Source: a virus (taxonomy: Duplodnaviria; Heunggongvirae; Uroviricota; Caudoviricetes). From it: a DNA stretch of 64,000 nt. Both the position numbers and the translations under genes were made by a program. The notes below the pieces were generated by a model, which was not told the origin of the DNA, made no database searches, and worked only from the letters and a program-made list of their open reading frames with translations. This document shows positions 135-55,066 of this stretch, in pieces. Positions within the stretch are counted from its first letter, which is position 1, and each line of letters opens with the position of its first letter. The DNA is taken from positions 159,865 through 223,864 of the IMG/VR virus record IMGVR_UViG_3300033463_000007. One strand, given 5' to 3'.

Positions 135-1187
135 ATGGTAACTAATAATATACAAATGGCATTTGGTGCTTTAAAGCCAAAAAAAGATATTCGAGAATTT
201 AAGGCTATTACAAACAAAGCTGCGCAAGTTGTTGATATTCCAGATGAATTTGAATTAACTATGCCTCCTGTTAAATCACAAGGACAAGTAGGTAGTTGTG
301 TAGCTCATTCAATTTCTCTTGCTATAGAATATTATAATAAGTTGCAAGAGGAAACTGACATAACTTTTAGTACTGGATATATATATGGTAACAGACGAAA
401 TCAACGTGGGCATAACGGAAGCGGTATGTATGTTGATGCAGCACTTAGTGCTGTTGTTAAATGGGGAGATGTAGCTAAAGATAAATTTTCTGAAAATATA
501 GAAGTTCCAGAAGCTATTACATTGTTTGAAGAGCGTGCTTTTGATTTAGCTCCAGAAGCCTACCCGAATAGATTTACGGAATATTTTGCGCTTAAATCTG
601 ATGAACAAATTAAGTTAAATCTTATGCAAAATGGACCAGTTGTTTTTAGTATTCCATGATATAAGGATTATGCTGTAGAGGCAAAAACATATATATTAAA
701 ACATACTAATAATGCAACATCTGGCGGTCATTGTATGGTTATTTATGGCTGAAATAAGGATGGTTGAAAATTTCAAAATTCTTGGGGCACCTCTTGGGGA
801 AATAGGGGTCGTGCCATTTTGCCATATGGAACCAAAATGTCCACTTGTTATGGCATTAAAGATACAATTATGGCAAGAGCACATGAGAAACAATTAGCAG
901 AATTAAAAGAAAAGTTAGAGAAATTAACAGAAAATTTAGAAAATAAAGAAAAAGAATTACAAAAAACTATAGAAAAATTAAAAGTTCTTGATAAGAATAA
1001 TGCAGAACAAGCAGAAGAGCTTCAAGAACTTAAAGAATCTAAAACAGCTCTTACTAAAGAAATTAATAGTTTACAAAAACAGATTAAAGAATTGCAGATA
1101 CAAAATGAACAACTTGAAAGCCTAAGAGCAGAATTATTTGCAATTAAGAAACCATTTGAAAAAATGCCAAAATGATTAGTAAAAATA
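135..1187 (+). CDS. Papain-like (C1 family) cysteine peptidase with C-terminal coiled-coil; contains in-frame TGA codons read as Trp
   Basis: QGQVGSCVAHS Cys motif, GGHCMVIYG-W-NKDG-W-KFQNS-W-G His/Asn region where the three W are TGA; ORFs 135..659 and 819..1175 are in same frame and joined only if TGA is sense; coiled-coil KEKLEKLTENLENKEKELQK tail. Confidence 0.65.
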
Positions 1188-1240
1188 ATTAATGCTATTC
1201 TTAATTTATTTAATTAATTTATAAATGGAAGGTTAGTTAT

Positions 1241-2413
1241 ATGAGTATTGTTATTAATAATAGATCATATAATAATATAGATGCACTGAGAGTAAAATCT
1301 TTAGAAGATGGGGGATCTATTTCAGAAAAATGATTTTATTCTGCTGATAAGTCTCAGGCAAAAATAGGTGAACCATCTTCTTCTGAAATTAAAATAATTA
1401 CTCCGGATGTTAATTACGTATCATTGAGTCAAGTCACCATTCCGCAAATTAACTCTGTTAATTTAGACCCTTCTAAAATTCAGGCTGGCCAAACGATTAC
1501 AATTGGCTGAGCAGGGAATCCGGCTGCTTTATATTCTATCACTGGTACATATACTAATGATGCCACAGCAACAGAATATGATATTCGTAAGGGTAAAATT
1601 GCCTATGTAAAAGGGCAGCGATTAGTTGGTGTATTAACAAGTAGTGGCAGCGCCGGAGAAGAAACTTTAAAAATATCTTCTCTTGCACAATACCCGACAC
1701 GAAACGGTGAGGGTTATTATGACTATGCACAAATTCTGGATGATTCAGATGTAACTGGTTTAAAAGCAGAAAATATTGTTTGTGGAAAAACAATATTAAC
1801 TGATCTTTATGGCACTTTTGGTTCTTTAGCAATTCCATCACAAGCAGCAGATGAGGCTAGTATTCTAGAGGGTAAAGTAGCAAACGTCTATGTTTATAAT
1901 GAGGAAACAGGTGAAGAATCTCTGAGAACAGCTGTAGGTACTATTAGGACTTGGCCTGAAACAGTTTATAATCCTGATAAAAATAATGATAGAACAATTC
2001 CAGCCCAAAGATATATTGCTGAAGACTTAGTAATAAAAAAAGTTAATATAGGTCCCGTGGATTCACAAACACAACAGGTGACTGCTAATCAAATGTTAGC
2101 AGGTACTTCTTTGGCAGTCGGCTATGATGGCACGCCAGAGGGTCTTCTTAGTATAACTGGCACCATTCCCACAAATCCAAACTCTGGTTATACTATTACC
2201 CCGGGTACTTCATCAATAACACTTTCTGGCCCATCTTATATTAGTTCTGATATTACAATTATAGGTGATACCGATTTAGTTACTAATAATATACTGGAGG
2301 GTATTACTATTTTTGGTGTTACCGGAACTCTAAAATCAGAGGAGACTATTTATACAGAATTATGAACAAGAATATATGGTACTCCAGAGCCTGTGGCTGA
2401 AGCTATATTTTAA
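1241..2413 (+). CDS. Tail fibre-like repeat protein (TGTYT module family)
   Basis: RBS GGAAGG upstream of ATG; continuous frame through 4 TGA codons; repeated motif ITGTYTNDATATEYDIRKGKIAYVKGQRLVG shared with neighbouring genes. Confidence 0.5.
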
Positions 2414-2460
2414 ACTAAAAATAGTTTTCTAATAGATAATATTAAAAGGATATTAAAAAT

Positions 2461-5400
2461 ATGCCAACAAATAAAGAAAACTTTATAAATAAATTAAATA
2501 CCCTAGCTGATGCTGTTAAGACCAAGAGACCACTAGCTGAGGGTACGGATTATACTATTAATAATATTGTTGATGCAATTAGTAGTTGGGAGCTTAGACG
2601 AGCAGAAGAAAGCCCAACAGTTGATTTAGATTTATCTAATGGCAATCAGGTAATTATACCTACTGTAAGTGGTAATGTCTTATCTCAGGTCACTATTCGG
2701 CAACCGGTAGATCAGGAAGGCCATAATATATTTATTTCTGATAATATTAGGTCTGGAATAACTCTTGGAAATGTAACCGGAACTTATACAGCTGTAAATG
2801 AGAATGCTGTAACAGCTGCAGATATAAGATTTAATAAAAAAGCCTTTGTAAATGGTAGCGATGTAATAACTGGTTCCATGTCAGATTATAGTGGAACTAC
2901 TTTAATTGTTCCAACTTTTACAAATGGTACACCCTCACAGTCATCAACATCCCATATAGCTACACAAAATACTTTTGTAACAAGTAATATTAATTATGCA
3001 AATATTTGGTATTCAAATTTAGACCCCACAAAGATTCTTAATGGTGAAACAGTCAATATTGGCACTACTGATGATATTAGTACACCAAAAGTTACTGTTA
3101 CTGGTACTTACACTCCAGCAGTTGAAACTCTAATTCTTGACCAACCAAATGAACCCGGTGGTTTAAAACTTAATTATCAAAATACAGTTGGTTATGATTT
3201 ACCAGTACAAATTTTAACACACAGCCAAGGTAAATTAATAGAACAAGTTATATTATATCGTCCTGAAAATCTTATACCGGAAAATATTAAATATAATATA
3301 CCTATTGCAGGTACTGCTGGTACCTTTACAAGTAGTTCTACTGTTTCCAGTGGACAAATTGCGGCAACAGCTGATAAAATACGTTCTGGTTATTCCGCAT
3401 GGGTAAATGGTACTGAAATACAAGGTTCAATACCTAATAAAAGTGCAGAGGTTTATAATCCAACTATTGCATCGTCAAGTTCCGGCACAGCCACTTTAAA
3501 TCCTATAACAATTAGTTCTGGTCAATACTTAACTGGAAATCAAACGATTACAGCGACAGAGGTAAGAGGGTTAAATCCTGAATATATTGTTTCTGGGCAT
3601 AGCATTCAAATTGGCTATACACAAAATGATACTTTTAGACCAATTCATACAACACAAGGCTCTTACACAGGTATTGCTTCAGAATATATTGAGCCAACAG
3701 CTATAGAGTTTAATGAATTAATTTTCCGCACTACTACAAGTGGAATTACGATAGATTCAGATGTTGTAGTAAATCCAGAACCTGGGCATGCTTTTAGTCA
3801 GGTTAAAATTAAAAGGCCAACTGATATGTCTGCAGTTGCTGCAAAAATTGCTTATAATCAAACTATACACGGTATTTCTGGTACATTTTCTTATGAAGCA
3901 AATAATTCTATAACTGCCAGTTCAATTAGAAATGGCAAAGTTGGTTTTGTTAATGGTAATAAAATTATCGGTACAATGCTTGAGCGTGATGTCGGTAATA
4001 TTGGACTTTCTACTACAGATTATACAATAGCAGCAAATCAATATTTAGCAGGTGCTCAGACAATTTATGGTGCCAGAATAACAACCACGGATACTGGCGG
4101 TACAATAGCTGTTAATGATTTTAATGCTTTAGCCGGATTACTTGTTAAAGATGTAACTTTAGATATTGGTGATACTGGTGATACTGATAGACTTGCTCAT
4201 ATTGTTGGTACATATGATAACCAAAAACCGGAAGAAGTTGGAAATGTAACATTAAATTTCTGAGATTCAACACATTCAACTTATTATGATCAATTAGACA
4301 TTAATCCAAGCACACAAAATACAGTTTTTTCTCATGTTTTAATAAATAAACCAGCGACTTTAATTAAAGGAAATATTGCATCTGGAGTTTCTATCGCTGG
4401 TGTTACAGGTACTTATACAAATGATGCAAATGCAACATCAAGTGACATTTATCCTGGCAAAACTGCTTATGTACAGGGCACTAAAGTTTCTGGCAGCATG
4501 CAAACACGTGCCGCTGCAACAATTTATCCGAGTGCTTCAGACCAAACAATTGCTTCAGGTCGTTATTTAACTGGTACTCAAACAATAAAAGCAACGACTG
4601 TTAAAGCATATGACCCAGTATTACAAGAAACTGTTCCGTTAGATCCTGATTATATTATTAAGGGTGTTGTTGTAAAAGTTGGTGATGAAGTTAATAATGC
4701 TCGTGTTGCTAGTATAACTGGTACTTTCGATTATACTGAATTTATTGAAGGTCCAAGAGAAGTTGATTTATCATTAGCTTCTGGCAATCAAACTATAAAT
4801 CCAGAGGCCACTGGATATTCAATGAGCCAAATAATAATTAAGAAGCCCGTAAATTTATTAGCTAGTAATATTAAAAAAGATGTTGAAATTGCAGGTATTA
4901 CTGGAACATTTGAAGAAATAAAAGTATTAGAAATAGATGCAAATTACAATTCAGCATCAACTATTAATCTCACTACTGCACAAAAGAATGTTTTTACTTC
5001 TTTGGCTTTAGGTAGTACTATTAAATTAAAATTTACACAATCTAATAGTATTAAATATTTTACTAAAACCTATTCAAGCACCTCCGGTAGTGAAACATTT
5101 ATTGTTCTTACTGCACCAATTTCAAATGATTTTGAATGAAGTAATACTAAATATATTAGAACAAAAACTGAATTATGTTATATTGCTATTGCTAATAATA
5201 CAGCAGAATTACATTTGGTATATAAACAAGGCTCGTCTGCTGCTTTATTAGGTGAAATTAGGCCTAATACTGATCTTGTATTAGACCCAAGCACTGAAAC
5301 ACGTATTTATGATTATACAGATGCTACAATAGGTATTCCTACATCATTAACGGTTACAGGTCTTGCTTATACAGCTGTTCAACCAGAGCAGCTTTTACAG

Positions 5401-5688
5401 GGGACAACATTAAATATTGGAACCGCAGCGGATCCAGATGCGGTTTATACTGTAACAGGTACTGCTATATCAGAATATGACTTATATTCATTATTAAATA
5501 ATGCTAAATGGGGTAATTCTGGTGATCTTGCAGGTACAACTGTATTATTCTCTAATACACCTGAGCTCACAAATATTGGTACTAAAGCAGTTACATTTAC
5601 AGCTGGCTCTGATAACTATACAAGTTTAACAATTAATAATAATGAAATTAAATATAATGATACTCGTGTATATGGCGAAGCTGAGTAA
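2461..5688 (+). CDS. Large tail fibre / receptor-binding repeat protein (~1075 aa) formed by ORFs 2461..4263, 4498..5139 and 5215..5688 joined through TGA=Trp
   Basis: All three standard-code ORFs are in the same frame and separated only by TGA codons (4261, 5137); repeated x-I/V-TGT-Y/F-T beta-strand motifs; ends with TAA. Confidence 0.55.
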
Positions 5689-5703
5689 AGGAGAAATATA
5701 AAT

Positions 5704-7116
5704 ATGGCAAAAAGTTGACTTGCTGGAGCTTCAAAAAAAATTACGATAACTGGCGGAAATGACAGTACAAATACAGATATATTAAAATATATGCAATTAA
5801 ATGCAGGCTGAATACAAACACTAGCTACACCAGTATTATCATTAACAGACTTAGCTATTACTTGGCCAAGTGTAACTAATAGGACCTCTTATACTGTTTA
5901 TGTTAATAATCAGTCCTATCAAGATCAAGTAATGATAAATTCTTTTGATATATCAGACTTTACACCCGGGACTTATTCAATTACAGTAAAAGCTATTGGA
6001 AGTACTTATTATCAAGACAGTTCATTAAGTACACCTTTTGTATATACATACTTAACTGCTCCAACAAATCTTGCAATAACAAATGATACAACATTATCTT
6101 TTACAGGTTCTTCTGGTGCAACTCATTATAGAGTTATTGTAGATTCTGAGACAATTCTTGGTATTTGTAATAGTTCTCCAGTTGACTTAGCTAGTTTTCA
6201 AGGCTGGGGTAATCTGACAGCAGGTGGTCATACAGTACAGTTACAAGCATTTGCTGATAATGCACGAGATAGTCAAGTTTCAACGGGTGTATTAGTTAGA
6301 ACTGGTGGTTATAATTTAACAGTTTCTACTTGACAAGAATCTGGTGAAGATAGTGGTCAATTTCAAGTTTTATATTCAGATAACTCCTCTGCTTGAGTTG
6401 GCTCTGGTACAACTAAGCATGTTTTACAAGTACTAGACTATAGATATACTTGAGATTATCAACAATCTTGAGAAATTAATGATGCCCAGCCATCATTACC
6501 TTATACACTTGCTGCAAATGCCTCTGCCTCAGTTTATTCTGAATCAAGTGGTGGCGGTGGGACCTGCTTTATTGCTGGTACACAAATAACTCTTGCTGAT
6601 GGTACCACAAAAGCTGCTGAGGATATTACTTATGATGATTCTTTGTTAGTTTGAAATTTCTATACTGGTACTTTTGATACAGCTAAACCCTTATGAATTA
6701 AGAAAGAAGAATTATCACCCTGTTATAATTTAGTCACTTTTGACAATGGTAAAACAATTGGTTTTGTTGGACCTGGACAAGAGATCGGTTATCATAGAAT
6801 TTATAATAATGAAGCTAAACAATTTACACATACTGGTGTAGCTGATACACCGGTAGGTACAACTTCTTTTGATGTTTTTGGACAGCAACCAAAAATAGTA
6901 AGTCAAGAAGTTAAATGAGAAAGAGTAAAATATTATAATATAATAACAGATAAATACTATAATTTATTTACAAATAATATTTTAACTTCTTGTATGCTAT
7001 CTAATGAATATGAAATATTAGATAATATGACTTATAATATAAATAATAGATATTTAACAGATAAACAAATTACTGATTATCTACAAAAAATTGAGGATTT
7101 AAGACGTCCAAATTAG
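5704..7116 (+). CDS. Structural protein with fibronectin-III-like repeats and C-terminal Hint (intein/hedgehog-like) domain
   Basis: ATG with RBS AGGAGAAATATAAAT upstream; many in-frame TGA; motif GGGGTCFIAGTQITLADGTTKAAEDITYDD is a classic Hint block A; ends TAG at 7114. Confidence 0.45.
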
Positions 7117-7129
7117 AAAGGATATTATA

Positions 7130-7579
7130 ATGGTTTATATTTTAGAAGGTACACATGGAGTTGGTAAAACCGAACGAAGTACAACTTTTGGAGTTCCTGT
7201 TGCAAATATTAGAAATGATACTCGTGCAAGAAATATTACACAAGTAACCTCATTACTTAATAGTTATATTAATATAGATGCTGTATTTGATAGATTTTTT
7301 ATGCTATCTTTTCCAGGAGAAGATCATGATAAAAGGGTCTCCCAATGTATTGCAATTAATAATTATTTAAAAACTAGATCTGATGTAACTTGTATTTTAT
7401 ATATCTGTGACCGCGAAGTTGCTTGACAAAGGTATCAAAATACAGAACATCCAATTGAGCGACGCGTTGATAGAGCTGGTTTTGATGCAGCTTATAATTG
7501 ATATCAAGAAATTATTCCATATATGGATGCTTTTCAAATAATAGATACCACCAATGCCAGCAGTCATCATTCTGGCTAA
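7130..7579 (+). CDS. P-loop nucleoside/nucleotide kinase-like protein
   Basis: Walker A GTHGVGKT near N-terminus; two in-frame TGA (W) extend ORF 7130..7426 to TAA at 7577. Confidence 0.4.
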
Positions 7580-19232: not shown

Positions 19233-19269
19233 TTTGCTAAATTATATAGTAAATATGGAGGATTTTATT

Positions 19270-20127
19270 ATGTTAAAATTTAAAGTACCAAAGCAACAAG
19301 ATTTAGATTTAGATCAGTTGATTTTTGATAGAATTACTTTTGGCAATACACAACCATCACCAAAAGATGATCGAGATTATATTGCGCAAGCTAAAGATTG
19401 ATCTAAAATAAAATTTCCAAAAGAATATAGAGCACCAAAAACAGAAGTTTTAAATCAAGAAAATTATGGGTCTTGCGTAGCTCATTCTTGCGCCACCGCT
19501 TTAGCCCAAGGAGAACAACTTATTTCAAATACCCACAATAATTATTCTCGCGGTTATATTTATGGTAATAGAAAATCAACTGACTTGCAAACTGAGGGTA
19601 TGATTGTTAGGCAGGCATTAAAGCAACTACATAATTGTGGAGATGTTCTATATGATGATTTTCCATATAATAAAACTTATCCTATGGTAAAAGCTTTAAT
19701 TGATATTGATAGAGAATATTTAGCAAATAAAGCAAAGCAGTATACTATTTTTGATTTTTATAGGTGTTGTGATGAAAATCAGTTAAAAGATGCTATTATA
19801 TCCTCCGGTGCAGTTATAATTGTAGTTCCTGTTTATAGTGATTTTGCCCGTGATTTACATAAAACTCAATCATGGGAACTCCGAGGCTATCATGCAATGG
19901 CTTTAGTTGGTTGAACTGCTGATAAATGAATTGTACAGAATTCTTGAGGCTTAGAATGGGGTTATGATGGTTGTTTATTAATGGATATGGATTATCCCAT
20001 AATTGAAAGCTGAGGCATAACCGTTAATAAGGAACTTAAAAAGTCACTTTGATATAGAATAAAAACAATTTTTAAACAATTTTGAAATTGAATTAAATAT
20101 ATCTGAAATAAAATATTTAAAAAATAA
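19270..20127 (+). CDS. Papain-like (C1) cysteine peptidase, paralog of 135..1187
   Basis: NYGSCVAHSCATALAQ Cys motif, GYHAMALVG-W-TADK-W-IVQNS-W-GLE-W-GYDG with W=TGA; ORF continuous only under TGA=Trp. Confidence 0.6.
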
Positions 20128-20216
20128 TTTGCTAAATTAATTAGTAATGCAGTAACTGTAAAAAATCTATTATTAGCTGCATTAGTTTAATAATTAGAGG
20201 AGAGATTTAGAAATAA

Positions 20217-20663
20217 ATGGATACTTGATTAGTAACTATAATTTCATTAATCGGGAGCACTGCATTATCAACAATAGTTGGCTTAATTATAAAAAACAGC
20301 GTCTCTAAAAAAATGGATGAACAAAAAGAATTACTTGAACTTCGTGAATCTAAAGGGCATCAAGAGCGTAAGCAAGAAATGACAGAAATTATAAAAGCTG
20401 AGTTATTACCCGTTACACAGCAGCTTGATTCATTATCAGAAGCAATAAAAAAGAATAATGCCGGTACTGTTACATTATTAAGAGAGAGCTTAAAGCAATC
20501 CAGAGATCATTTAATGGAAAAAGGAGTTGCCACTGCCTCTGAAGTTGCAAGTTGACATGAACTATATAATACTTATGCAAAGCTAGGCGGAAATAATTTT
20601 AAAGATTATGTTGATGCTTGAAAAGATGATGTAGATGGGCTACCAAGAGAAAAAAGTAAATAA
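20217..20663 (+). CDS. N-terminal transmembrane protein with charged coiled C-terminus (holin-like / lysis accessory)
   Basis: MDT-W-LVTIISLIGSTALSTIVGLII TM segment; three TGA=W; preceded by TTTGCTAAATTAATTAG motif. Confidence 0.35.
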
Positions 20664-20692
20664 AATTTTTAAATATGGTAAAGGAGTAATGT

Positions 20693-21073
20693 ATGGAAAA
20701 ATTTAGTTTAATTTGTGATTTAGTTATTGCTATTATTGGGGTAATTCCAACAATTATTTCATTAATTTATTTAGTTAGAAATATTATAAAAAATAAAAAT
20801 TGGAATATGATCATGAAAATGGCAATGGAAGCAATGACTGCTGTAGAAGCTTATGCTATTGCTAATCCTAACATGACATCTGAGGATAAACTTAATATGG
20901 CATTAGAGGCTATCAAGAAAGCCTGTGGATCTGCTGGAATTACAGTAGATGATATTCTTATTAAACAAATTATTGATTATATTTCTGAAATGTGCAGCTG
21001 GGCAAAAACTGTTAATACAAATGTAGAAGTAGTTGAAGTTAAAACTGTTATGCTTGCAGCAAAAACAAAGTAA
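20693..21073 (+). CDS. Holin-like protein (LL-H type architecture)
   Basis: N-terminal TM LICDLVIAIIGVIPTIISLIYLV followed by amphipathic helices. Confidence 0.4.
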   Translation: MEKFSLICDLVIAIIGVIPTIISLIYLVRNIIKNKNWNMIMKMAMEAMTAVEAYAIANPNMTSEDKLNMALEAIKKACGSAGITVDDILIKQIIDYISEMCSWAKTVNTNVEVVEVKTVMLAAKTK

Positions 21074-21095
21074 TTTAACAGGAGGATTTATTTAA

Positions 21096-21461
21096 GTGTT
21101 TTATATTGCAGATAATGGAATTATTAAGCTGCATGCTGGTGATTCTGGAAATTTTCATTTTCAAATCAATATTGGTTCCACAATAAATCCTCAACCTTAT
21201 GCATTACAAGCAAATGATAAAATTTATTTTTCAGTAATGGAACCAAACCAGCCTTTTGAGCTTGGTGTTTTAAGAAAAATTTTAACAGTTGATGATTTAA
21301 TTGATGAAACAACAATTAATATTCAATTTATAACAGAAGACACTGAAAGGTTAATTCCTGGAATTTATTATTATGAAATGAAATTAGTGCTTATAGATAA
21401 TGAAGAAAATACTCATTATTACACTATTTGCCCAAAAACTAAATTTTATATTCTTGATTAA
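21096..21461 (+). CDS. Hypothetical protein
   Basis: ORF with RBS AGGAGGA. Confidence 0.3.
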   Translation: MFYIADNGIIKLHAGDSGNFHFQINIGSTINPQPYALQANDKIYFSVMEPNQPFELGVLRKILTVDDLIDETTINIQFITEDTERLIPGIYYYEMKLVLIDNEENTHYYTICPKTKFYILD

Positions 21462-21529
21462 AAATAGTTTATTTAAAAATTAATAGCCCTCTCCACTTTA
21501 GGGGGCTTTTTTATTCGGAGAGATACTTT

Positions 21530-23023
21530 ATGAAGAAGACAGATAATTATCAACAAAATATAGATGAAAATAGTGATAAAAATTTTGAATCAATTGGGTA
21601 TGATGAACCAATTGATTTATTATATAGTGAATTAGTTGCCTCTAAGGAAACACCAGAACAAGTAATTATTTATACTGATTTTACACGTAGAACAGAATTA
21701 CCTACTGAAAATGATAAATATGTTAAATCATATATTCGTGAAGCTGATGGCGGATGAAATTTAGCTATTAAAGGTAAGCCTACTCATGAATTATGCACTG
21801 TATTAAGTAATTGTGTAGGCTGAGCCGCTGGTAGATATAATGAAATTTATGATGAAATTAAAAATATCACAGGTCATCATTATCCTTATTTAGTTTGTAA
21901 TGCAGAGGATTTTCCAGTTCGAGCCAAAAAATCATATCCTGATATTATAATGGATCAAACTCCTGAACCTGGCGCAATAATGGTCTGAGAAGGTATTGGT
22001 AGTCTCGCAGGACATGTTGCTATTGTAGAAGAAGTGATAGATAATAATACTGTATATACTTCTGAATCAGGTTATGGTAGTACTATTCCAATGAGATACC
22101 AAAAAAGAGTTAATGATAATGGTTGTTGAGGCATGAACACAACAAATTATAAATTTACTTGCTTTATGCACAATCCAGCAGTTGAAAAAACTATTATTAA
22201 TATAGTGCAACCAGTTGAAAGAGATGTACTAATAGATCAATTATATATTGATACACCTAATTATTCATATATTAGAATGGATCATAGTACAGCTTCTAAA
22301 GCCATAGGGCAGTTTAAACAGGGATATTTTAATTATACCGATAGTTTTATTGGCGATGATTATGTTTGATATAAGCTTGCTGAAAATCAATGAGTTGCTA
22401 AAACAGGCCATATCCAAGTATATCCTAAAGTAAATCCAAGTATAGAAAAAATTGAATTGAATGAAGACTATACTAATACATATTATGCAGGTGATTTTTT
22501 ACAGTTTAAAATGATAGGTTTAAATTGCAAAGAATATTGAAATACCGGGGAAGTAAAAGATGTTGTTTATAATAATTATAAAATAATACCAGCAAATGGC
22601 ACAGCTTTAACTGTTAATGATACAAAAATTATTATTAATTTTGAAAATAATTTAACTCTTGAATTACCTCTTGAGATAAAAGTTAAGGTTGAGCCAAAAG
22701 TTGTAAAAATACAGCTTTCTGGCACGTATAAAACTGAATATTGAGAAGGCGAAAAACTTGATTTAACTGGTCTTATTGTTGAAGCAGTTTATGATAATGG
22801 TGAAATTACTTCATCTATACCTTATATTGCTTCACCACAGGCAAATAGTTTGTTACCATTTATGGGGACTCAAAACGTTGTAATTGCTGCTTATCTTGAC
22901 AACAAAGGATTTTCAACTTCTTTTAAAATAAATGTAAAACATAAACAAACTGCAGCCGAAAAATTCAGTCAAATGATACAAGCACTAGCTAACTTTATTA
23001 GAAGTTTATTTAATAAAAAGTAA
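21530..23023 (+). CDS. CHAP-domain peptidoglycan hydrolase with C-terminal Ig-like repeats (lysin / tail-associated lysin)
   Basis: CTVLSNCVG-W-AAGRY (Cys) and GAIMV-W-EGIGSLAGHVAIVEEV (His) CHAP motifs; many TGA=W; C-terminal KVVKIQLSGTYKTEY-W-EGEKLDLTGLIVEAVYDNG Big-like domain. Confidence 0.6.
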
Positions 23024-28389: not shown

Positions 28390-28406
28390 TTTGCTAAATT
28401 AATTAG
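28390..28406 (+). promoter_or_regulatory. TTTGCTAAATTAATTAG motif (second recurring intergenic motif)
   Basis: Near-identical copies at 20128, 28390, 53063; variants at 12370, 15236, 19233, 44565. Confidence 0.4.
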
Positions 28407-28430: not shown

Positions 28431-29456
28431 ATGTCAGTAAAAGATGCGTTAATAGCTACTCATTTATTTTTAGAAAACGACTACTTTTTTCGGTATATTG
28501 ATTTAATTGAAAAAAATAAAAATAGAGTAAAACAAAAGTATAAAACTCAAAAACATCATATTATTCCAGCTATTGCTTTTAAATTATATAATTGAGAAGG
28601 TATTGATGCACCAGAAAATTTAGTTAATTTATTATATAAAGATCATATTTTAGCTCATTATTATTTAGCTTTAGCTACTAAAACTTCTGATTTTCAATAT
28701 AAAATGATTGCTGCTATAAATTTTATTTTAGGTAAAGCTAAACAAAGTAAAATAGATATACAAGAACTACAAACTTTTATCTTAAATTTGGAAAATTATC
28801 AAAATTTATATGAAAATTGAATTAAAGAAAGAAGTTTATTACTTCACTCCAAATTATTAGGTCATGAAACTTCTGAAGAAACAAGAAAAAAAATAAGTGA
28901 AGCAAATAAAAATAAAATTTATATTTATAAAGAAAATATAGTACGTGCTGTTCATAAAGAAGACTTACAATTATTTTTAGATAATGGTTGAACTTTAGGA
29001 AATCCTAACTGTCAAAAAAGAAAACAGACCACAGGACAGACTATTATACATAAAGAAGAAATTGAAAAATATATTTTTAAAGAAGACTTATCTTTATATT
29101 TAGCTAATGGTTGAATATTAGGACGAAGTGACCAACATAAAAAAGCAACACAGCAAGGAACACAAGCTTATTATGATAAATTAACAAAAGAAGAAAAAAT
29201 TAATAAATGTGCAACTAGACAAAATCAACACTGAGAAATGTCAGAAGAAACAAAGAAAAAAATAAGTAATGCAAAGTCTGGAAAAAAGCAATCTGAAGAA
29301 CAAAAACTTTTAAATAGTCAAAATAAAAAAGATACAATTTGAATGACTAATGGTCAACAAGATATTATGATTAAAAAAGATTTAGAACTTTATTATTTAG
29401 ACCAAGGTTTTATTCGAGGAAGAACTAATTATAAAAAAAATAAAAAAGGAGAATAA
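28431..29456 (+). CDS. Free-standing HNH homing endonuclease with NUMOD3-like repeats (341 aa, 9 in-frame TGA=Trp)
   Basis: KHHIIPAIAF HNH core; repeated SEETRKKISEANK / SEETKKKISNAKSG (NUMOD3) and LQLFLDNG-W-TLG / LSLYLANG-W-ILGR repeats; preceded by TTTGCTAAATTAATTAG motif; invisible in the standard-code ORF track. Confidence 0.55.
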
Positions 29457-47080: not shown

Positions 47081-47285
47081 TTTTTATAAAAGTTACAGTA
47101 AAATTATTAGCTAAATTAAAAGAATAAAATAGCTAAGATAGAAAAAATAGCACAACCAAAGAAATTTGGTGTCGCAAAGCTAAAGGGCCCTTTCCGGGCA
47201 GCCAGTTGCTTCTAGGAGACATTACTCATGGAAGCTTTTATTTTATTTATATTTTATTAAAAATTTATATAAAGGGGAAAAATTT

Positions 47286-47927
47286 ATGAAATTAAGAAAC
47301 ACATTAGCACTTATTATGGTAGCAGCTATGCTTTGCTTTGTTGGTGTTGGCTTTGCAGCATGAACATTTATGAATATTGAAGATGCTGAAGTTAGTACAA
47401 TTCAGGATAAAGTTGCTGTCGGTATTGAATTAAATAATGGTTTTAAACTCTATAATGCAGCAGATGATGCTGAAATTACCGCACTTTATCTTATTTGTGA
47501 TGCTCCTGCTGGTGAAACAGATATTCTTAATGGCCAGGGTGTTTATTGGTCAACTTCTGCAACAGGTAAAGATGGTTCTGGTAATAAGTTAGCTGTTACT
47601 AATGTATATATTAAAGGTACATTAGCAAAAGCTGATGAAGACGGTGTCTGGGATAAAGCTACTGTTGATGTTGCATTTACAGCCGACTATACTGATTTAA
47701 GTTCAACTTATATTACTTTTGGTGTAGCTCCAACTATTGCTAATACTACTGGTATTACTGTTGCAAATAATGCAGTAGTTCAAAGTGCATCTTTTGTATT
47801 ACCTTCAGTTGCATATGTTGCAGCAAATCTTCCTCACAGTATTTCAGAGTTAACAGATATGAATACTGCCCTTGGAACAGACTTAAGCGGTACTGCTTTA
47901 AGATTTACAGCTCAAATTGTTGCTTAA
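47286..47927 (+). CDS. Secreted protein with signal peptide
   Basis: MKLRNTLALIMVAAMLCFVGVGFAA-W signal peptide; TGA=W joins to ORF 47370..47927. Confidence 0.4.
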
Positions 47928-49775: not shown

Positions 49776-50181
49776 GGGGGTGTAAAGGTTTCGACAGGGT
49801 TAAGAAAGTGATAGTATACGCAGGAGTTATTCACCTTACGAATCGGTAATTTAAAATAAACGACAATACAATTGTTACTTTTAGTCCTTTCTTAATTAAT
49901 GCACTCTCTTCTATGAGGGCTGCTGCTTAAGATATTATAGGCGCCAAAACAATACGCTGGTGATCAAGCAAGTATTTGAGGTCAAAGAACGGGTCACATA
50001 AAGTTGTCCAACTTTAAAATGGACTGGTGGAGACGGATAAAACCGGCGCAACTCATTTAATATATTGAATTTGCTTATTTTACATTATATTAAATTATTT
50101 TATTAAATAAGCTAGTGCGTAAGTATTATACTATTTTAGTATTAATTTTGGACAGGGGTTCGATTCCCCTCACTTCCACCA
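49776..50181 (+). ncRNA. ssrA: tmRNA (ssrA) with long tag ending -AAA
   Basis: 5' GGGGGTGTAAAGGTTTCGACAGGG (cf. E. coli GGGGCUGAUUCUGGAUUCGACGGG), 3' GGACAGGGGTTCGATTCCCCTCACTTCCACCA; acceptor with G3:U70; tag ORF ...GAC AAT ACA ATT GTT ACT TTT AGT CCT TTC TTA ATT AAT GCA CTC TCT TCT ATG AGG GCT GCT GCT TAA = (N)DNTIVTFSPFLINALSSMRAAA. Confidence 0.75.
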
Positions 50182-50185
50182 ATGT

Positions 50186-50261
50186 CTGGGTGTAATTCAG
50201 TTGGTAGAATGCGTGATTTGGGATCACGATGCCGGATGTTCAAGTCATCTCACTCAGACCA
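50186..50261 (+). tRNA. tRNA-Pro(UGG)
   Basis: CTGGGTG-TA-ATTC-AGTTGGTA-GAAT-G-CGTGA-TTTGGGA-TCACG-ATGCC-GGATG-TTCAAGT-CATCT-CACTCAG-A-CCA. Confidence 0.7.
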
Positions 50262-50403: not shown

Positions 50404-51191
50404 ATGAATTTATTTAAATGCTACCTATCCGACAGTAAGTGATATAAAGAAGCCGTAAGAAATGGTCAACCCATTGGAATTCTTTGACATGACACTGCTG
50501 CTGGAAACCCAAACTTAAAACGTTATGTCCAACCAAATGAATCAGATCCAGATTATGATAAGCTTATGGCAATGCTTGGAAAGAATCAATATAATAATTC
50601 TTGACAGCATTCTACCATGAATAAAGGTGTAAATGCTTTTATTGGTAAACTAGAAGATGGCTCGGTTGCAACAGCTCAATTAGGTGAATGAGATATTCAT
50701 GCTTGAGGTTGTGGGGGCGGAAATAAAGGCTCCTGTAATGGTTATACTATTGTAAATGGTAAAACAACTTGAGTTGAACCTTTTTGGATTCAATTTGAAA
50801 CTTGCGACGACTTTTATACTGATAAAAGCTACTTTGAAGCGGTCTATAAAGAAGCTTGTGAGTTTACAGCTTATATTTGTAAGCAATTTAATATTGATCC
50901 AAATGGTACCGTAGAGTTTAATGGTGTTCAGGTACCTACTATTTTATGTCATGCAGATAGCTATAAGCTTGGACTTGGAAATGATCATGGTGACGTTTTA
51001 GTATGATTTAAAAAGTTTGGTAAAACTATGGATGATGTAAGAAGAGATGTGGCTGCTATCTTACAAGAAGAAAAAGAAAAAGATGATAAAGATAAAGACG
51101 ATGAAGAAATAGATGAAAATACATTTCTCAAATGCTTTAAAATAGTCATCAAATTTATTAAACAGCTCTGGTATAGCACAAATAAAAAGTA
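50404..51191 (+). CDS. N-acetylmuramoyl-L-alanine amidase (Amidase_2/PGRP-like endolysin); 9 in-frame TGA=Trp
   Basis: GIL-W-HDTAAGNP, HA-W-GCGGGNKGSCNGY, PTILCHADS zinc-ligand pattern; completely fragmented in the standard-code ORF track. Confidence 0.65.
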
Positions 51192-51198
51192 AAACTTT

Positions 51199-51267: not shown

Positions 51268-53037
51268 ATGTCTAGTTTATTTGGTGATGAATTTGAAATT
51301 AAAATTAAAGAACCAGTAGTTAAAGATTTAATTAATAAAACAAAAGCTAAGAAAGAAGCAGAGATTGATCCTGAAAAGCTTTTAAAATCAAAGAAGACCT
51401 CTTTACTCGATAGATTAGCTCTTATTAATGAAAATGTATCTAAAATTTTGGGTAAGCAAAAACATAATGTTTTAGTAATTAAAGATAAACAAACATTTGA
51501 AAATTATATTACTGAAGCCATTAAATCCGGTCGAATCGCAATAGATACAGAAACTAATAATTCAACAGACCCCGTAACTTGTAAATTAATGGGTCCTTGT
51601 TTCTATTATCCTGGTGGTAAACAGGCTTATGTACCTATTAATCATAGAAATCCGGAAACAAAAGAACGGCTTTCATGGCAATTAACAGAACAGGACTGTC
51701 AGGAGCAGTTTAAAAGACTTGTTGATAGCCATAATGAAATTATAATGCATAATGGCAAATTTGACTATGAAGTTATTAAATGTACATGTGGAATCGAAGT
51801 TGTTCCAGATTGGGATACTCTAATTGCTGCAAGATTAATAGATGAAAATACATTTAAAGATGCTGCTATTGGCCTTAAATCACTATATACTAAATATATT
51901 GATCCGGAGCAAGAAAAATACTCAATAGATCATTTATTTGCAAATGTTACATATGCTGATGTAGATCCAGATATTTTTGCTTTATATGCTGCCACAGACT
52001 CAATGATGACTGATAAAGTATATATTTGGGAGCATAAAACTTTTTATGATTTACCAGAAAATCAACCTGTATTAAATTTGCTTAGAACTATTGAAATGCC
52101 GATTATTCAGGTTACAGCTGAAATAGAATTACGCGGTGTTTTTATTGATCAGGAGCTTGGTGAAAGACTTAAGATAAAATATAATAATCAACTTAATGAA
52201 TTAGATAATAAAATTAATCAAATTCTAGTAGATATAAAACCGATTATTTCAACTTGGCGGCTTACAAAAGATGCAGTAGATCAAGCTAAACAATATGTTT
52301 CCGCAAAATCTAAAATGACAGCTGAAAAAATTGAAACAACATATCCTTTTATTGATAAGGATGGCAGACGTTATAAAATTGGTAAATCAAAGTCAGAACA
52401 GCTACCTGAAGATGTAAATCTTGCATCTCCTACACAACTTGCTATTTTATTGTATGATATTTTAGGTTGCCCAGTAATTGATAAAAAGAATCCAAGGGCT
52501 ACAGGTGAAGAAGAAATTGGTAAAATTGTTGAGAAATTAGAGTCAAAGGAGACAAATGATATTAAAGTAGCCGCGGCTAAACAGCTTTGTAGTAGCATTT
52601 TGCAGCGTAGAGGCTTAGCTAAGTTAATTACTACTTATATTGATGTTATTCCTGACTTGGCAAAGCATTGGCCAGACGGTAGAATTAGATATAGATTAAA
52701 TTCAACCGGCACAGACACAGGTCGTTTTGCCTCTGGTGGCAAGTTTAAATTCCTAGATGAAAATGAAAACCCAGTAGAATTAAACTCAATTAATAGCCAA
52801 AATTTACCTTCTCATAATGCAGAAATTAGACTTTTATTTAAAGCCAGTGAAATTTATAATAAATGTTATTGTAATGATGATGTTTATAAGATTCAAGTCG
52901 GTGATGAAGTTGAAACTATTGATGGCTGGAAAAATGTTAAAGAATTAAAAGTTGGTGATGTTATTATTGGTGATGAAAGTCAGGATACTATTATTAATAT
53001 AGTTCAAAAAGAGCAAACTTATTTAATTTATATTTAA
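51268..53037 (+). CDS. polA: DNA polymerase I (family A), 3'-5' exo + N-terminal part of polymerase domain (exon 1 to ~52857; remaining 60 codons are in-frame read-through into the insertion)
   Basis: IAIDTETN (Exo I), HNGKFDYEV (Exo II), RIRYRLNSTGTDTGRFASGG and NLPSHNAEIRLLFKASEIY align to Klenow RIHTSFNQTGTATGRLSS and NLQNIP...IRQAFIAPEDY. Confidence 0.7.
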   Translation: MSSLFGDEFEIKIKEPVVKDLINKTKAKKEAEIDPEKLLKSKKTSLLDRLALINENVSKILGKQKHNVLVIKDKQTFENYITEAIKSGRIAIDTETNNSTDPVTCKLMGPCFYYPGGKQAYVPINHRNPETKERLSWQLTEQDCQEQFKRLVDSHNEIIMHNGKFDYEVIKCTCGIEVVPDWDTLIAARLIDENTFKDAAIGLKSLYTKYIDPEQEKYSIDHLFANVTYADVDPDIFALYAATDSMMTDKVYIWEHKTFYDLPENQPVLNLLRTIEMPIIQVTAEIELRGVFIDQELGERLKIKYNNQLNELDNKINQILVDIKPIISTWRLTKDAVDQAKQYVSAKSKMTAEKIETTYPFIDKDGRRYKIGKSKSEQLPEDVNLASPTQLAILLYDILGCPVIDKKNPRATGEEEIGKIVEKLESKETNDIKVAAAKQLCSSILQRRGLAKLITTYIDVIPDLAKHWPDGRIRYRLNSTGTDTGRFASGGKFKFLDENENPVELNSINSQNLPSHNAEIRLLFKASEIYNKCYCNDDVYKIQVGDEVETIDGWKNVKELKVGDVIIGDESQDTIINIVQKEQTYLIYI

Positions 53038-53101
53038 TTTTTTATCTTGACCGGTAAAATCAGTGCTAAATTAATTAGATTAATATTTTGGAGGTTTAAT
53101 T

Positions 53102-53896
53102 ATGGCATATGGTTTTATTTATAAAATAATAACTACAGCTTCTAATAAAGTTTATATTGGACAAACAACTAGAACTATTGAAGAACGTTACCAAGAGCAT
53201 TTGAAAGCAAGAAATAGTAAAGATAAAAATACTTTACATTTATATCTTGCTATGAATAGGTATGGCGTTGATACTTTTAGTGTTGAAAAAATTGATGAAG
53301 CTAATACACAAGAAGAACTAAATCAAAAAGAAATATATTGAATTAATTTTTATGATTCAATGAATAATGGATATAATATGGCACCTGGTGGTAGCATAAA
53401 TATTTTTGAATCTGAAAAAGTTAGAAAAAAACATGCAGCAAGCATGCGTGATCCAAAAACACGAGAAAAAATTTCTAAAACAATGCATGAGCTTAGAACT
53501 ACTTTTGGCTTTTCTGAGGAACATAAAAAAAAGATACGTGAATCAAGTCGAAAGCGAAAAGAAGAACGGGCAAAGTTAGGTTTAAAATATTATGATGATT
53601 GTTCACATTGTGCAACTAGATCAAAAGCAGTTTATTGTATATTAGATACCGGTGAAAAATTTGAATTTGATTCTATTTTACACGCTGGTAAATGATGATA
53701 TGAAACATACAAACCCTTTGGTGAAACTTATTCTACTGCTACCTATCAAAGAAAAATTGAAGCCTCTATTGCGGGTAAAGAAATTATTTTCCAATCCGGA
53801 CATGACAGTAGAAGTCAAGGTAAAAAAAATATTATTATTAAAATAACTAATATAAAATGATTTTATAAAGATAATTGAAATGGAGGTGATGCCTAA
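53102..53896 (+). CDS. GIY-YIG homing endonuclease inserted within polA (intron-encoded)
   Basis: GFIYKIITTASNKVYIGQTTRTIEERYQEHL GIY-YIG motif; ORFs 53102..53341 and 53360..53695 same frame joined by TGA; preceded by GTGCTAAATTAATTAG motif and RBS GGAGG. Confidence 0.7.
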
Positions 53897-55066
53897 TGAA
53901 AAAGTCTGTCAATATTCGCACAAAATATCGAATTGTTGGTTCAGACTATTCTTAAGTCCGGTCAGGAATTACGACTAGCTGCTTTTATTAGTCAAGATAA
54001 AAAATTACTTGATGCTTATGCAAATAATCAAGATGCTTATGCTATTATTGCAAGCACAATTTTTAATGTACCATATGAAGAATGCCTAGAATTTTATCCA
54101 GCTGGTACTGAGCTAGAAATTGGTGGCCAAAAGGTTATTGCCGGTAATAAAACTCATTTAAATCCAGATGGTAAGGCAAGAAGATCTGTTGGTAAAACAA
54201 TGGTGCTTGCTGGAAACTATGGAATGTCAGGTGCTGGTGCTGGTTCTCTTATGAAGAAAACAGCTAAAGAAGGCAAAGAACTCCTCGAAAAATATTTTCA
54301 GATGTTTACCGGACTTGGTAGTGCTATAGAAAAAGCAAAGGCAGATTTAAAAAAGACTGGTTACGTTGAAGGTCTTTGTGGGCGTAGACGTAGGCTGCCA
54401 GATATTTTTCTTTCTCCCTATGAAGTAAAATATAAAGATCCTGCTAAATTAGAGCAGCAGAATTTTAATCCATTTATAAATTGTCAAAATAGAAATTATA
54501 TTGATCCAACACTTCAGAAATATATTACAAAAACTAATTTTTGTAAAAATAATACTGACTATGAAGCTTTGGTACAGGAAGCTGCTAAAGATGGTGTAAT
54601 TGTACAGGCTAATACAGGTAGAATTGCGCAGGCAGAGAGACAGTGTTTTAATGCTTTAATTCAGGGCGCCGCTGGTACACTTACTAAAAAAGCTATGATT
54701 GATATTTTCAACGATGAACAATTAAGAGCTTGGGATACACATTTAATTGTTACAGTACATGATGAAGTATTAGTTGAATGTAAAGAAGAATATGCAGACT
54801 TGGTTGAGCAAAGATTACCGGAAATTATGATTAATGCAGCTAAAGAACTTGGCATTGAAGCGCCCAGTATGAAATGTGATCCGTATAATGTTACTAGATG
54901 GTATGCAGATAATGCAGCAGCAGCAATTTTAAAAGAATATAATAAAGCTGTTGAAAAAGGAAAGTCAAATGAAGAGGCTCTTGAAAAAGTTATTCAAGAG
55001 CATGAGGAAATTCCAGGAGAAGCCATTATTAAAACAGTTGAAACTGGTTGTGATTTAAATTTTTAA
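53897..55066 (+). CDS. polA: DNA polymerase I C-terminal part (motifs A, B, C); contains a 7-nt frame discontinuity inside motif A at 53947-53953
   Basis: Frame a: MKKSVNIRTKYRIVGSDYS-TAA (motif A Asp); frame b from 53954: GQELRLAAFISQD..., RRSVGKTMVLAGNYG (motif B), VHDEVLVE (motif C). Confidence 0.6.

Follow-up and report, generated by a model that had tools for sequence, protein, structure and literature searches.

To our knowledge, gene 60 of phage T4, with its topoisomerase homologs, is essentially the one element from which programmed translational bypassing has been described in bacteria and phages. The MobA/gene 60 element has been described as consisting of a C-terminal extension, an endonuclease, an N-terminal extension, a diverged homologous region and the bypass, with the insert ending at the landing codon (Manning & Atkins 2022, preprint). 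Here we present a locus of comparable organization from the DNA of an uncultured tailed phage. The stretch analysed, hereafter called the window, is 64,000 nucleotides (nt) long (positions 159,865 to 223,864 of IMG/VR record IMGVR_UViG_3300033463_000007) and is the examined part of a phage genome of about 232 kb; it is phage-like in character, with a G+C content of 29.6%. In it, a gene for a family A DNA polymerase is interrupted twice, by an insert of 1,071 nt that carries a GIY-YIG homing endonuclease gene and by a coding gap of 7 nt within the catalytic motif A. From the sequence we regard it as rather probable that the gap is crossed by a programmed translational hop from UCU to UCC, and that it lies at the end of an endonuclease cassette organized like that of T4 gene 60/MobA.

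The resemblance to the T4 element has several parts. In each case a free-standing endonuclease divides a gene that is essential for replication, the upstream open reading frame (ORF) has acquired a C-terminal extension and the downstream ORF an N-terminal extension, and the downstream ORF contains a diverged copy of host sequence followed by a coding gap. In each, a stop codon directly follows the take-off codon (the putative one, in the present case), the take-off position moves between neighbouring codons across lineages, the gap often persists where the endonuclease has been lost, and the type of nuclease is swapped (HNH, GIY-YIG or Vsr-like). There are also differences. The host gene in T4 encodes a topoisomerase, whereas here the target is motif A of a family A DNA polymerase. 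Gaps of the gene 60 type span 20-50 nt (the gene 60 bypass itself is 50 bases), whereas the gap described here is 7 nt and those of most relatives are 4-15 nt, with one of 55 nt. Unlike gene 60, the window allele shows no significant take-off stem-loop and no evident Shine-Dalgarno (SD) sequence in the gap or nascent-peptide signal. The two elements share no sequence homology and, in contrast to T4, the phages considered here are uncultured, low in G+C and read TGA as tryptophan. A search of 50,697 phage records by blastn and tblastn returned no match above about 37% protein identity; these records therefore contain no annotated close relative and offer no cultured model.

Two further groups of systems are relevant. 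In laboratory stop hops in Escherichia coli (Weiss et al. 1987; O'Connor et al. 1989), as later literature summarizes them, the peptidyl-tRNA detaches beside a stop or slow codon and, a few nucleotides further on, pairs again with a matching codon, whatever its frame, which is also what we propose here. Those hops were synthetic or accidental and of low efficiency, whereas a whole phage clade conserves the present arrangement, which has become fixed in an essential gene. The nrdA gene of Aeromonas phage Aeh1 and the split gp43 of T4-like phages likewise specify an essential enzyme as two ORFs with an endonuclease between them and presumed reassembly of the products; they differ in that no coding gap is known from the downstream ORF.

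Results

Two insertions in a DNA polymerase gene

The window was aligned by MAFFT with the gene of a close relative, L190, whose polymerase is continuous. The product of that gene (P0128; 907 amino acids, aa) belongs to the same protein cluster as that of the window, at 90% identity or more, and reads ...FKAADGY|RIVGSDYSGQELR... across the site. Exactly two insertions in the window distinguish the genes, one of 1,071 nt and one of 7 nt (TAAGTCC); the sole other indel is 3 nt extra in L190 near the 5' end. The larger insertion was aligned at 52855-53925, a placement equivalent to 52858-53928, TAT being repeated at both ends. The uninterrupted DNA of the L190 type reads ...TATCGTATAGTTGGATCCGACTATTCAGGTCAGGAA... 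at the site, with a TCA|GGT junction. The coordinates of all parts are collected in Table 1.

The N-terminal part of the polymerase, which begins with the ATG at 51268, comprises the 3'-5' exonuclease domain and the beginning of the polymerase domain. It is colinear with L190 as far as ...IRLLFKASEIY (final codon TAT, 52855-52857), where polymerase homology ends. The ORF is open for 59 further codons before the TAA at 53035-53037, giving an intact N-fragment of 589 codons. Homology resumes with RIVGSDYS, which is followed at once by a TAA, and the remainder of the enzyme, beginning GQELRLAAF..., is encoded by 368 intact codons in a frame that is +1 relative to the leader that precedes RIVGSDYS. 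When the leader and the 368-codon part are joined across the gap, the product is 387 aa long, matches Pfam DNA_pol_A (2.5e-42) and is colinear with intact stand-alone homologs of 387 aa, P0002-P0006 (MKKTINTRTKYKIVGSDYSGQELR...). Skipping the gap gives DYS|GQELR, which is identical to the sequence in P0002-P0006 and in L190. These boundaries agree with an earlier reading of this DNA made from the letters alone (the sequence-only reading), which had placed the end of a first exon near KASEIY (52857) and the resumption near RIVGSDYS, with an insertion of about 1.07 kb between them, and which had noted a GIY-YIG endonuclease with its own ribosome-binding site and the motif GCTAAATTAATTAG; all of these are present, and the 7-nt frame break that it reported inside motif A is real and is the sole second insertion relative to L190.

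Divergence from L190 is distributed unevenly around the small gap. The 24 nt between the insertions (53929-53952) are 79% identical to L190, and every change is synonymous. By contrast, the 120 nt that follow the gap (53966-54085) are 95-98% identical, against a mean of about 82% for the gene. This contrast makes the 7 nt look like the right-hand boundary of a single unit. The best explanation of the sequence, in our view, is that the 1,071-nt insert and the 7-nt gap together make up a homing-endonuclease cassette with its insertion point just upstream of motif A. The order of its parts is a 59-codon tail, a promoter-like spacer, the endonuclease gene, a long SD sequence, an 11-codon leader, a copy of RIVGSDYS and the 7-nt gap. 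A comparison of L017, which has the endonuclease gene, with L022, which has none, could not reveal co-conversion boundaries at their divergence (about 85-88% identity), and L190 was used instead. The high identity of 53966-54085 to the cassette-free L190 could reflect either a boundary of recombination or co-conversion, or a constraint on the endonuclease target at the nucleotide level.

Table 1. Features of the interrupted polymerase gene (window coordinates).
Feature	Position	Strand	Remarks
Family A DNA polymerase, N-terminal part	51268..52857	+	Pfam DNA_pol_A_exo1 and DNA_pol_A; L190 alignment
C-terminal extension (tail) of the N-fragment, 59 codons, NKCYCNDD...TYLIYI and TAA	52858..53037	+	Not in L190; conserved at the protein level
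Spacer upstream of the endonuclease gene	53038..53101	+	Motif GCTAAATTAATTAG at 53065-53078; GGAGG ribosome-binding site
Free-standing GIY-YIG homing endonuclease, 264 aa	53102..53896	+	Pfam, PDB and PHROG matches; own GGAGG
Long Shine-Dalgarno sequence GGAGGTGATG for the C-fragment leader	53882..53891	+	Inside the 3' end of the endonuclease ORF
N-terminal extension (leader) of the C-fragment, MKKSVNIRTKY, 11 codons	53896..53928	+	Not in L190
Cassette copy of the first half of motif A, RIVGSDYS, with the catalytic Asp	53929..53952	+	79% identity to L190; putative take-off codon TCT at 53950-53952
Coding gap of 7 nt, TAAGTCC	53953..53959	+	Stop TAA 53953-53955, spacer G, putative landing codon TCC 53957-53959
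Rest of the polymerase C-fragment, GQELRLAAF... to TAA	53960..55066	+	Pfam DNA_pol_A; colinear with P0002-P0006

Coding gaps in related polymerase genes

Gapped alleles were collected from protein matches whose gene call begins in the wrong frame or just after motif A, from three collections that were scanned for a DNA pattern and then narrowed to genuine polA motif A sites, and from a pattern-independent, profile-based sample of viral contigs. Most matches in the pattern scans of the metagenome and genome collections were chance occurrences outside polymerase genes, and only those at polA motif A were kept. Among the 120 clusters of nearest homologs, motif A is intact within one ORF in 48; a further 12 begin in the +1 reading of DYS-stop and 48 begin just after motif A. 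All seven of the sampled clusters in this last class proved to have gaps. About half of the polymerase family carries such interruptions.

The 7-nt gap of the window conforms to the design TC[TCG] TA[AG] [GT] TC[TCAG], of which there are 10 distinct sequences, that of the window and those of nine relatives at 45-90% protein identity (L017, L024, L025, L026, L027, L030, L055, L066 and L186). Within this set the stop codon and the "TC" are invariant, while the wobble positions vary. Gaps of other kinds (Table 2) sit at the same place in motif A or one to five codons downstream, and the codon that they follow specifies Ser, Ala, Glu or Arg. A stop codon opens every one of the 11 gap types.

Table 2. 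Gap types other than the 7-nt serine design, written as the codon before the gap, the intervening bases and the last codon of the gap (for L187, the resume codon).
Allele	Sequence	Gap length	Codon relation
L100	TCT TAG TCT	6 nt	Ser to Ser
L110	TCC TAG CGGAAA TCA	12 nt	Ser to Ser
L184	TCT TAA CGAATAGTA TCA	15 nt	Ser to Ser
L107/L179	GCC TA GCT	5 nt	Ala to Ala
L183	GAA TAG T GAG	7 nt	Glu to Glu
L188	GAA TAG CCT GAG	9 nt	Glu to Glu
L129	TCC TAGCT GCG	5 nt	Unmatched
L134	TCC TGAGAACT GGG	8 nt	Unmatched
L187	CGA TAG T ATG	4 nt	Unmatched; after QEPR (2985-3000), ends at native Met codon
L181 (also L182), 3900-3990	Strong take-off stem-loop	55 nt	Unmatched; triplet before the resume codon is UUU, not Ser

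This recurrence bears directly on two ways in which the gap might be of no functional consequence. The first, raised as one option in the sequence-only reading, is that the 7 nt are an error of sequencing or assembly. Nothing beyond its prior probability speaks for this. The exact frame-broken C-fragment ORF of the window is present in at least 3 Logan and ENA contigs (the longest of 231,970 nt), and a JGI record (232,051 nt) has the same ORF save for the letter written for its TTG start codon. Moreover, different studies have yielded more than 20 distinct contigs in which homologous gaps show compensating variation. With the break recurring in independent assemblies and in diverged lineages, we consider the likelihood of an artefact negligible.

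The second is that the polymerase is a decaying pseudogene, disabled by invasion of the endonuclease, and that some other enzyme replicates the phage. The break does lie in a catalytic motif, and the 64 kb of the window are a minor part of a genome of about 232 kb. Against this, the reading frames of the leader, of the 589-codon N-fragment and of the 368 codons downstream remain intact. Lineages at 45-90% identity retain the arrangement, with change biased towards synonymous substitutions, and such interruptions occur in about half of the family. In pairs of close gapped alleles, the differences in the leader are almost exclusively synonymous (3:0 and 4:0), and the leader is therefore translated and under selection. 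An inactivated polymerase, which had also been offered as an option, is thus highly improbable: both ORFs are intact, and the leader of gapped alleles is under purifying selection.

In L100, L184, L183 and L188 the inserted bases are often the reverse complement of codons just upstream, as in GCTCAGG-AATAG-CCTGAGC of L188. The gaps may have originated when a double-strand break was repaired by fold-back (snap-back) synthesis, as this pattern hints.

Proposed translation across the gap

In the mechanism that we propose, a ribosome would initiate at the ATG at 53896 and translate 19 codons, bringing the serine codon UCU into the P site with UAA in the A site. The peptidyl-tRNA(Ser) would then unpair, the mRNA would slide by 7 nt, and the tRNA would re-pair with UCC, so that decoding would restart at GGU and the product would read DYS-GQELR. 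In the window the candidate landing codon, UCC, is immediately 5' to the resume codon GGU and is synonymous with UCU. The same grammar, a codon, a passage over the stop and a synonymous codon, serves gaps of 5, 6, 7, 9, 12 and 15 nt. In seven of the 11 gap types the last codon of the gap and the codon preceding the stop are synonymous (P = 1e-6, taking 1/16 for each type), although the loci share ancestry, so that this and the other P values given here overstate independence.

That loss of independence is one of several points that weigh against a hop, and the rest should be set out beside it. The other four gap types (those of L129, L134 and L187 and the 55-nt gap of L181) have no matched landing codon, and we found no landing rule for these four. 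A hairpin GACU...AGUC can be drawn at the window gap, but it is no better than expected by chance (P = 0.24, by simulation), and neither a nascent-peptide nor an SD stimulator was identified there. The hop, and with it its efficiency, is something that we infer from sequence alone, and short stop-hops measured in E. coli have been described as low-efficiency (Manning & Atkins 2022, preprint). Finally, if the 7-nt alleles are taken alone, a +1 shift yielding DYS-(K/R/S)-S-GQELR fits the variation equally well. As for hairpins in the other alleles, they are significant for the 15-nt gap (L184), the 55-nt gap (L181) and the 7-nt Glu gap (L183), and the 9-nt gap of L188 shows by eye a perfect 7-bp hairpin, which stood outside the simulation; overall, a take-off hairpin is marginal across alleles (P = 0.05) and forms no part of the case made here for the window.

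The +1 shift deserves the closest comparison with the hop. A programmed shift at UCU UAA G, as the sequence-only reading had suggested among its options, would read AAG UCC GGU and give DYS-KS-GQELR, adding two residues to motif A. The two frames do differ by +1, a stop codon in the A site is a classic stimulator of such shifts, and in the 7-nt alleles the two codons would be read as K, R or S followed by Ser, an insertion that might be tolerated. Yet a tRNA(Ser) paired with UCU or UCG is unable to pair with CUU or CGU after the shift, and no SD-like element of the prfB type is evident in the 15 nt upstream. All intact homologs examined keep the D-x4-E spacing of motif A unchanged. A +1 shift can resolve neither the in-frame gaps that contain a stop (6, 9, 12 and 15 nt) nor those of 5 nt, and it leaves the excess of matched codons without explanation. 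We prefer the hop because it restores the D-x4-E spacing and because the 5-, 6-, 9-, 12- and 15-nt versions defy a single frameshift. The earlier suggestion thus had the right class of event, a translational one, and we judge a +1 shift as such unlikely.

A different possibility is that UAA is obeyed, freeing a 19-aa leader peptide, and that the rest of the enzyme is initiated separately, which would make the polymerase a three-piece enzyme. The gap in L187 (CGA TAG T ATG) ends at a native Met codon, a typical arrangement for termination and reinitiation, and L187 may use this route, breaking its polymerase into three pieces. As an account of the window it is very unlikely. The resume frame offers only two TTG codons as candidates for reinitiation, 24-27 nt upstream and without a ribosome-binding site, and in 9 of the 17 gapped alleles no ATG, GTG or TTG occurs in the downstream frame before the resume codon. 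In addition, all 17 alleles have a strong SD sequence before the leader, and a separate product would lack the strand with the catalytic Asp, which the 19-aa peptide would have to supply in trans.

A gene for tmRNA lies at 49776-50261 (Rfam, 85.5 bits; tag ...SSMRAAA), about 1 kb upstream of the polymerase gene, and is followed at once by tRNA-Pro(UGG). It is curious to find this ribosome-rescue RNA beside a gene that would stall ribosomes on a stop codon.

Expression of the split polymerase

The larger insert raises the separate question of how the N- and C-terminal parts of the enzyme come together. The sequence-only reading had held that the insert is most likely a group I intron, in which a homing endonuclease gene resides and whose splicing would restore one ORF. 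GIY-YIG genes are often borne by introns, exon 1 would end in U, and the boundaries of the insert coincide with the break in homology. Nevertheless, we find this hardly tenable. Rfam gave no group I match, either in a scan of the window at the gathering threshold or in a permissive scan of 52600-54200 at E<=10. The first 177 nt of the insert encode a conserved, translated domain, just about 30 nt follow the endonuclease ORF, and the final base of the insert is not G (T or A precedes the resume point). The C-fragment has its own SD sequence and ATG. Relatives without the endonuclease keep two ORFs 0-20 nt apart, with tail and leader, which leaves no room for a ribozyme. Splicing, furthermore, would leave the 7-nt gap in place.

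The tail and leader could instead be the two parts of a split intein that joins the halves by protein trans-splicing, as in the fractured genes of Dassa et al. (2009). The order of an N-part, a free endonuclease and a C-part is the same in both, the tail resembles the first strands of the Hint fold, and in some relatives the junction with the leader reads N|T. The fractured genes differ in possessing the residues and the size that define an intein. Tail and leader amount to about 70 aa, against about 130 aa or more for a Hint fold; across 32 aligned relatives, position 1 is not conserved as Cys or Ser, and both TxxH and His-Asn are lacking; and Pfam reports no intein match. The junction in the window is N|I, so that the nucleophile is missing, and precise excision would require Arg at the +1 position. 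Since residues and size are both absent, protein splicing is not to be expected, and we regard a split intein as scarcely credible.

What relatives show points elsewhere. Homologs of the C-terminal part are nearly all stand-alone proteins of about 350-430 aa, opening with leaders homologous to that of the window, and many begin M-K-K-x-x-N-x-R-T-K-Y-K-I-V-G-S-D-Y-S-G-Q-E-L-R. The tail is conserved at the protein level in split relatives, and in some relatives it lies within one continuous ORF, where it is read through in frame. It appears as a small beta-rich domain resembling the start of the Hint fold, without the catalytic residues of inteins. With no intron, no intein and stand-alone homologs of the C-terminal part, we conclude from the sequence that the polymerase is made as two polypeptides. 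These would reassemble non-covalently through tail and leader, a proposal that rests on analogy and that, like the immunity function considered below, must be counted among the weaker points of our interpretation.

The endonuclease and its link to the gap

The endonuclease matches GIY-YIG in Pfam (PF01541, 4e-9), the I-TevI catalytic domain in the PDB (1MK0, 6e-7) and homing endonucleases in PHROG (2e-29). Aligned with 1MK0, it retains the conserved Tyr, Arg, Glu and Asn residues of the GIY-YIG domain. Its ORF is open only if five in-frame TGA codons (53339, 53693, 53696, 53858 and 53876) are read as Trp, and all five fall at Trp-typical positions of I-TevI-like enzymes. Like I-TevI it has an N-terminal catalytic domain and a separate C-terminal DNA-binding region, and like the free-standing Seg and Mob endonucleases of T-even phages its gene lies between two genes and is variably present in close relatives. 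It differs from these enzymes in not residing in an intron, in using TGA for Trp, and in having a C-terminal domain in common with HNH-headed enzymes at the same site. The C-terminal region is in fact shared with the HNH-headed ORFs of L030 and L066 (E = 2e-17), which fits one DNA-binding module specialized for the site. A GIY-YIG head is found in the window, L017, L026, L110 and L186; a head that looks Vsr-like by eye (DUF7487) occurs in L055 and L181; and the head of L030 and L066 is related to a second free-standing endonuclease of the window, at 28431-29456. The latter has a NUMOD3 motif and, by eye, an HNH-like head (KTQKHHIIP...YKDH), and its N-terminal 200 aa are 32-34% identical to the nuclease heads at the polA site of L030 and L066. 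It was rejected as another case of gene splitting, for its neighbours do not look like halves of one gene.

Presence of the endonuclease is polymorphic: L190 lacks the entire insert, L027 retains the last 20 or so codons of an endonuclease and no full gene, and L134 has a decayed spacer of 416 nt between the halves. An endonuclease ORF separates the polymerase halves at 10 of 20 distinct gapped loci and at none of 9 intact split loci (Fisher P = 0.011). The long SD sequence, (A)AGGAGGTGATG, precedes the leader ATG in all 17 tabulated gapped alleles with or without an endonuclease, and by eye also in L186-L188, so that the endonuclease-free gapped loci all keep this part of the cassette; it is absent from the intact split alleles. 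In the window the leader ATG overlaps the endonuclease stop codon as TAATG, and the leader ORF opens with MKKSVNIRTKYRIVGSDYS before its TAA.

In T4 the bypass sequence reportedly interrupts the target of MobA. By analogy, the 7-nt gap would interrupt the motif A target of the endonuclease itself and protect cassette-bearing DNA from cleavage; the gap thus probably makes such DNA immune to its own enzyme. The cleavage motif of I-TevI, CNNNG, is too degenerate for its possible coincidence with the gap position to be informative.

The same polymerase gene has a second cassette site, after ...QKVIAG, in L024 (minus strand, about 4700-3330), P0125 and L013:2057-3633. In L024 this site has another Hint-like tail, a GIY-YIG ORF, the same long SD sequence and the leader MKLANITVKSPARLTSKAGKERRSVGKTLVL, and a TAG with a 10-nt gap precedes AGNYGMSG... 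in another frame. The landing codon there is unmatched unless take-off occurs one codon earlier (GUU to GUA).

The spacer motif GCTAAATTAATTAG has three exact copies in the window (20131-20144, 28393-28406 and 53065-53078), each about 37 nt upstream of a TGA-rich ORF, encoding respectively a holin-like protein, the HNH endonuclease and the GIY-YIG endonuclease. With up to 2 mismatches there are 10 matches, against 3.6 expected, and the motif looks like a late promoter or a shared regulatory element. In-frame TGA at Trp-typical positions is confined to a subset of genes, for example those in 135-7579, 19234-23023, 28431-29456, 50404-51192 and 53102-53896, and these are peptidase-like, tail-like, amidase-like and holin-like ORFs as well as both endonucleases. 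The replication genes (the polymerase halves and the RecA-like and clamp-like genes) have no TGA and specify Trp by TGG. This suggests that TGA-to-Trp recoding is confined to late and mobile genes, so that the endonuclease may be made only late in infection.

Other elements in the window

A c-di-GMP-I riboswitch aptamer was found at 47139-47213 (Rfam, 49.5 bits against a gathering threshold of 35), upstream of the ORF at 47286-47927. The tail-like ORF at 5704-7116, which has nine in-frame TGA codons, contains GGGGTCFIAGTQITLADGT, which by eye is similar to the beginning of a true Hint or intein-like autoprocessing domain; Pfam gave no support for such a domain in this ORF.

Discussion

The structure of the cassette, its presence or absence among relatives, the conserved grammar of the gaps and the colinearity of the joined product with intact homologs are seen directly in the sequences. 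Taken more widely, these observations lead us to think it slightly probable on balance that a large clade of uncultured gut and rumen phages with genomes of about 200 kb expresses its essential family A polymerase through programmed hops over 4-55 nt at four adjacent codons of motif A, each gap being the self-protecting trailing edge of an endonuclease cassette. In the literature that we could search, an incomplete library, we met no account of a DNA polymerase gene with a bypass cassette, and the word "polymerase" does not occur in the preprint of Manning & Atkins. What that literature holds on bypassing concerns the T4 element with its topoisomerase homologs, laboratory stop hops, mitochondrial bypassing and candidates from Streptomyces phages. 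According to the main review of the field, shorter counterparts of gene 60 have long been presumed and not found, and no natural in-frame stop hop is known.

One consequence is practical. Gene callers truncate these polymerases: of the 120 nearest database homologs, about half have a called start that is downstream of motif A or out of frame.

If our interpretation is correct, the window would contain a short natural counterpart of the 50-base bypass of T4 gene 60, and this would be the second independent system of programmed bypassing in bacteria and phages, located in a different essential gene. The alleles of its relatives would be the first natural series of short hops and of in-frame stop hops. 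Gaps of 4-7 nt would seem to need little beyond a stop codon and a matching landing codon, and more than 10 natural variants (5, 6, 7, 9, 12, 15 and 55 nt; after Ser, Ala and Glu) would form an allelic series from which the minimal requirements for take-off and landing could be read. The locus would also be the second endonuclease cassette to carry a coding gap, in which case bypassing as a means of self-immunity would be a general strategy of mobile DNA and not an oddity of T4.

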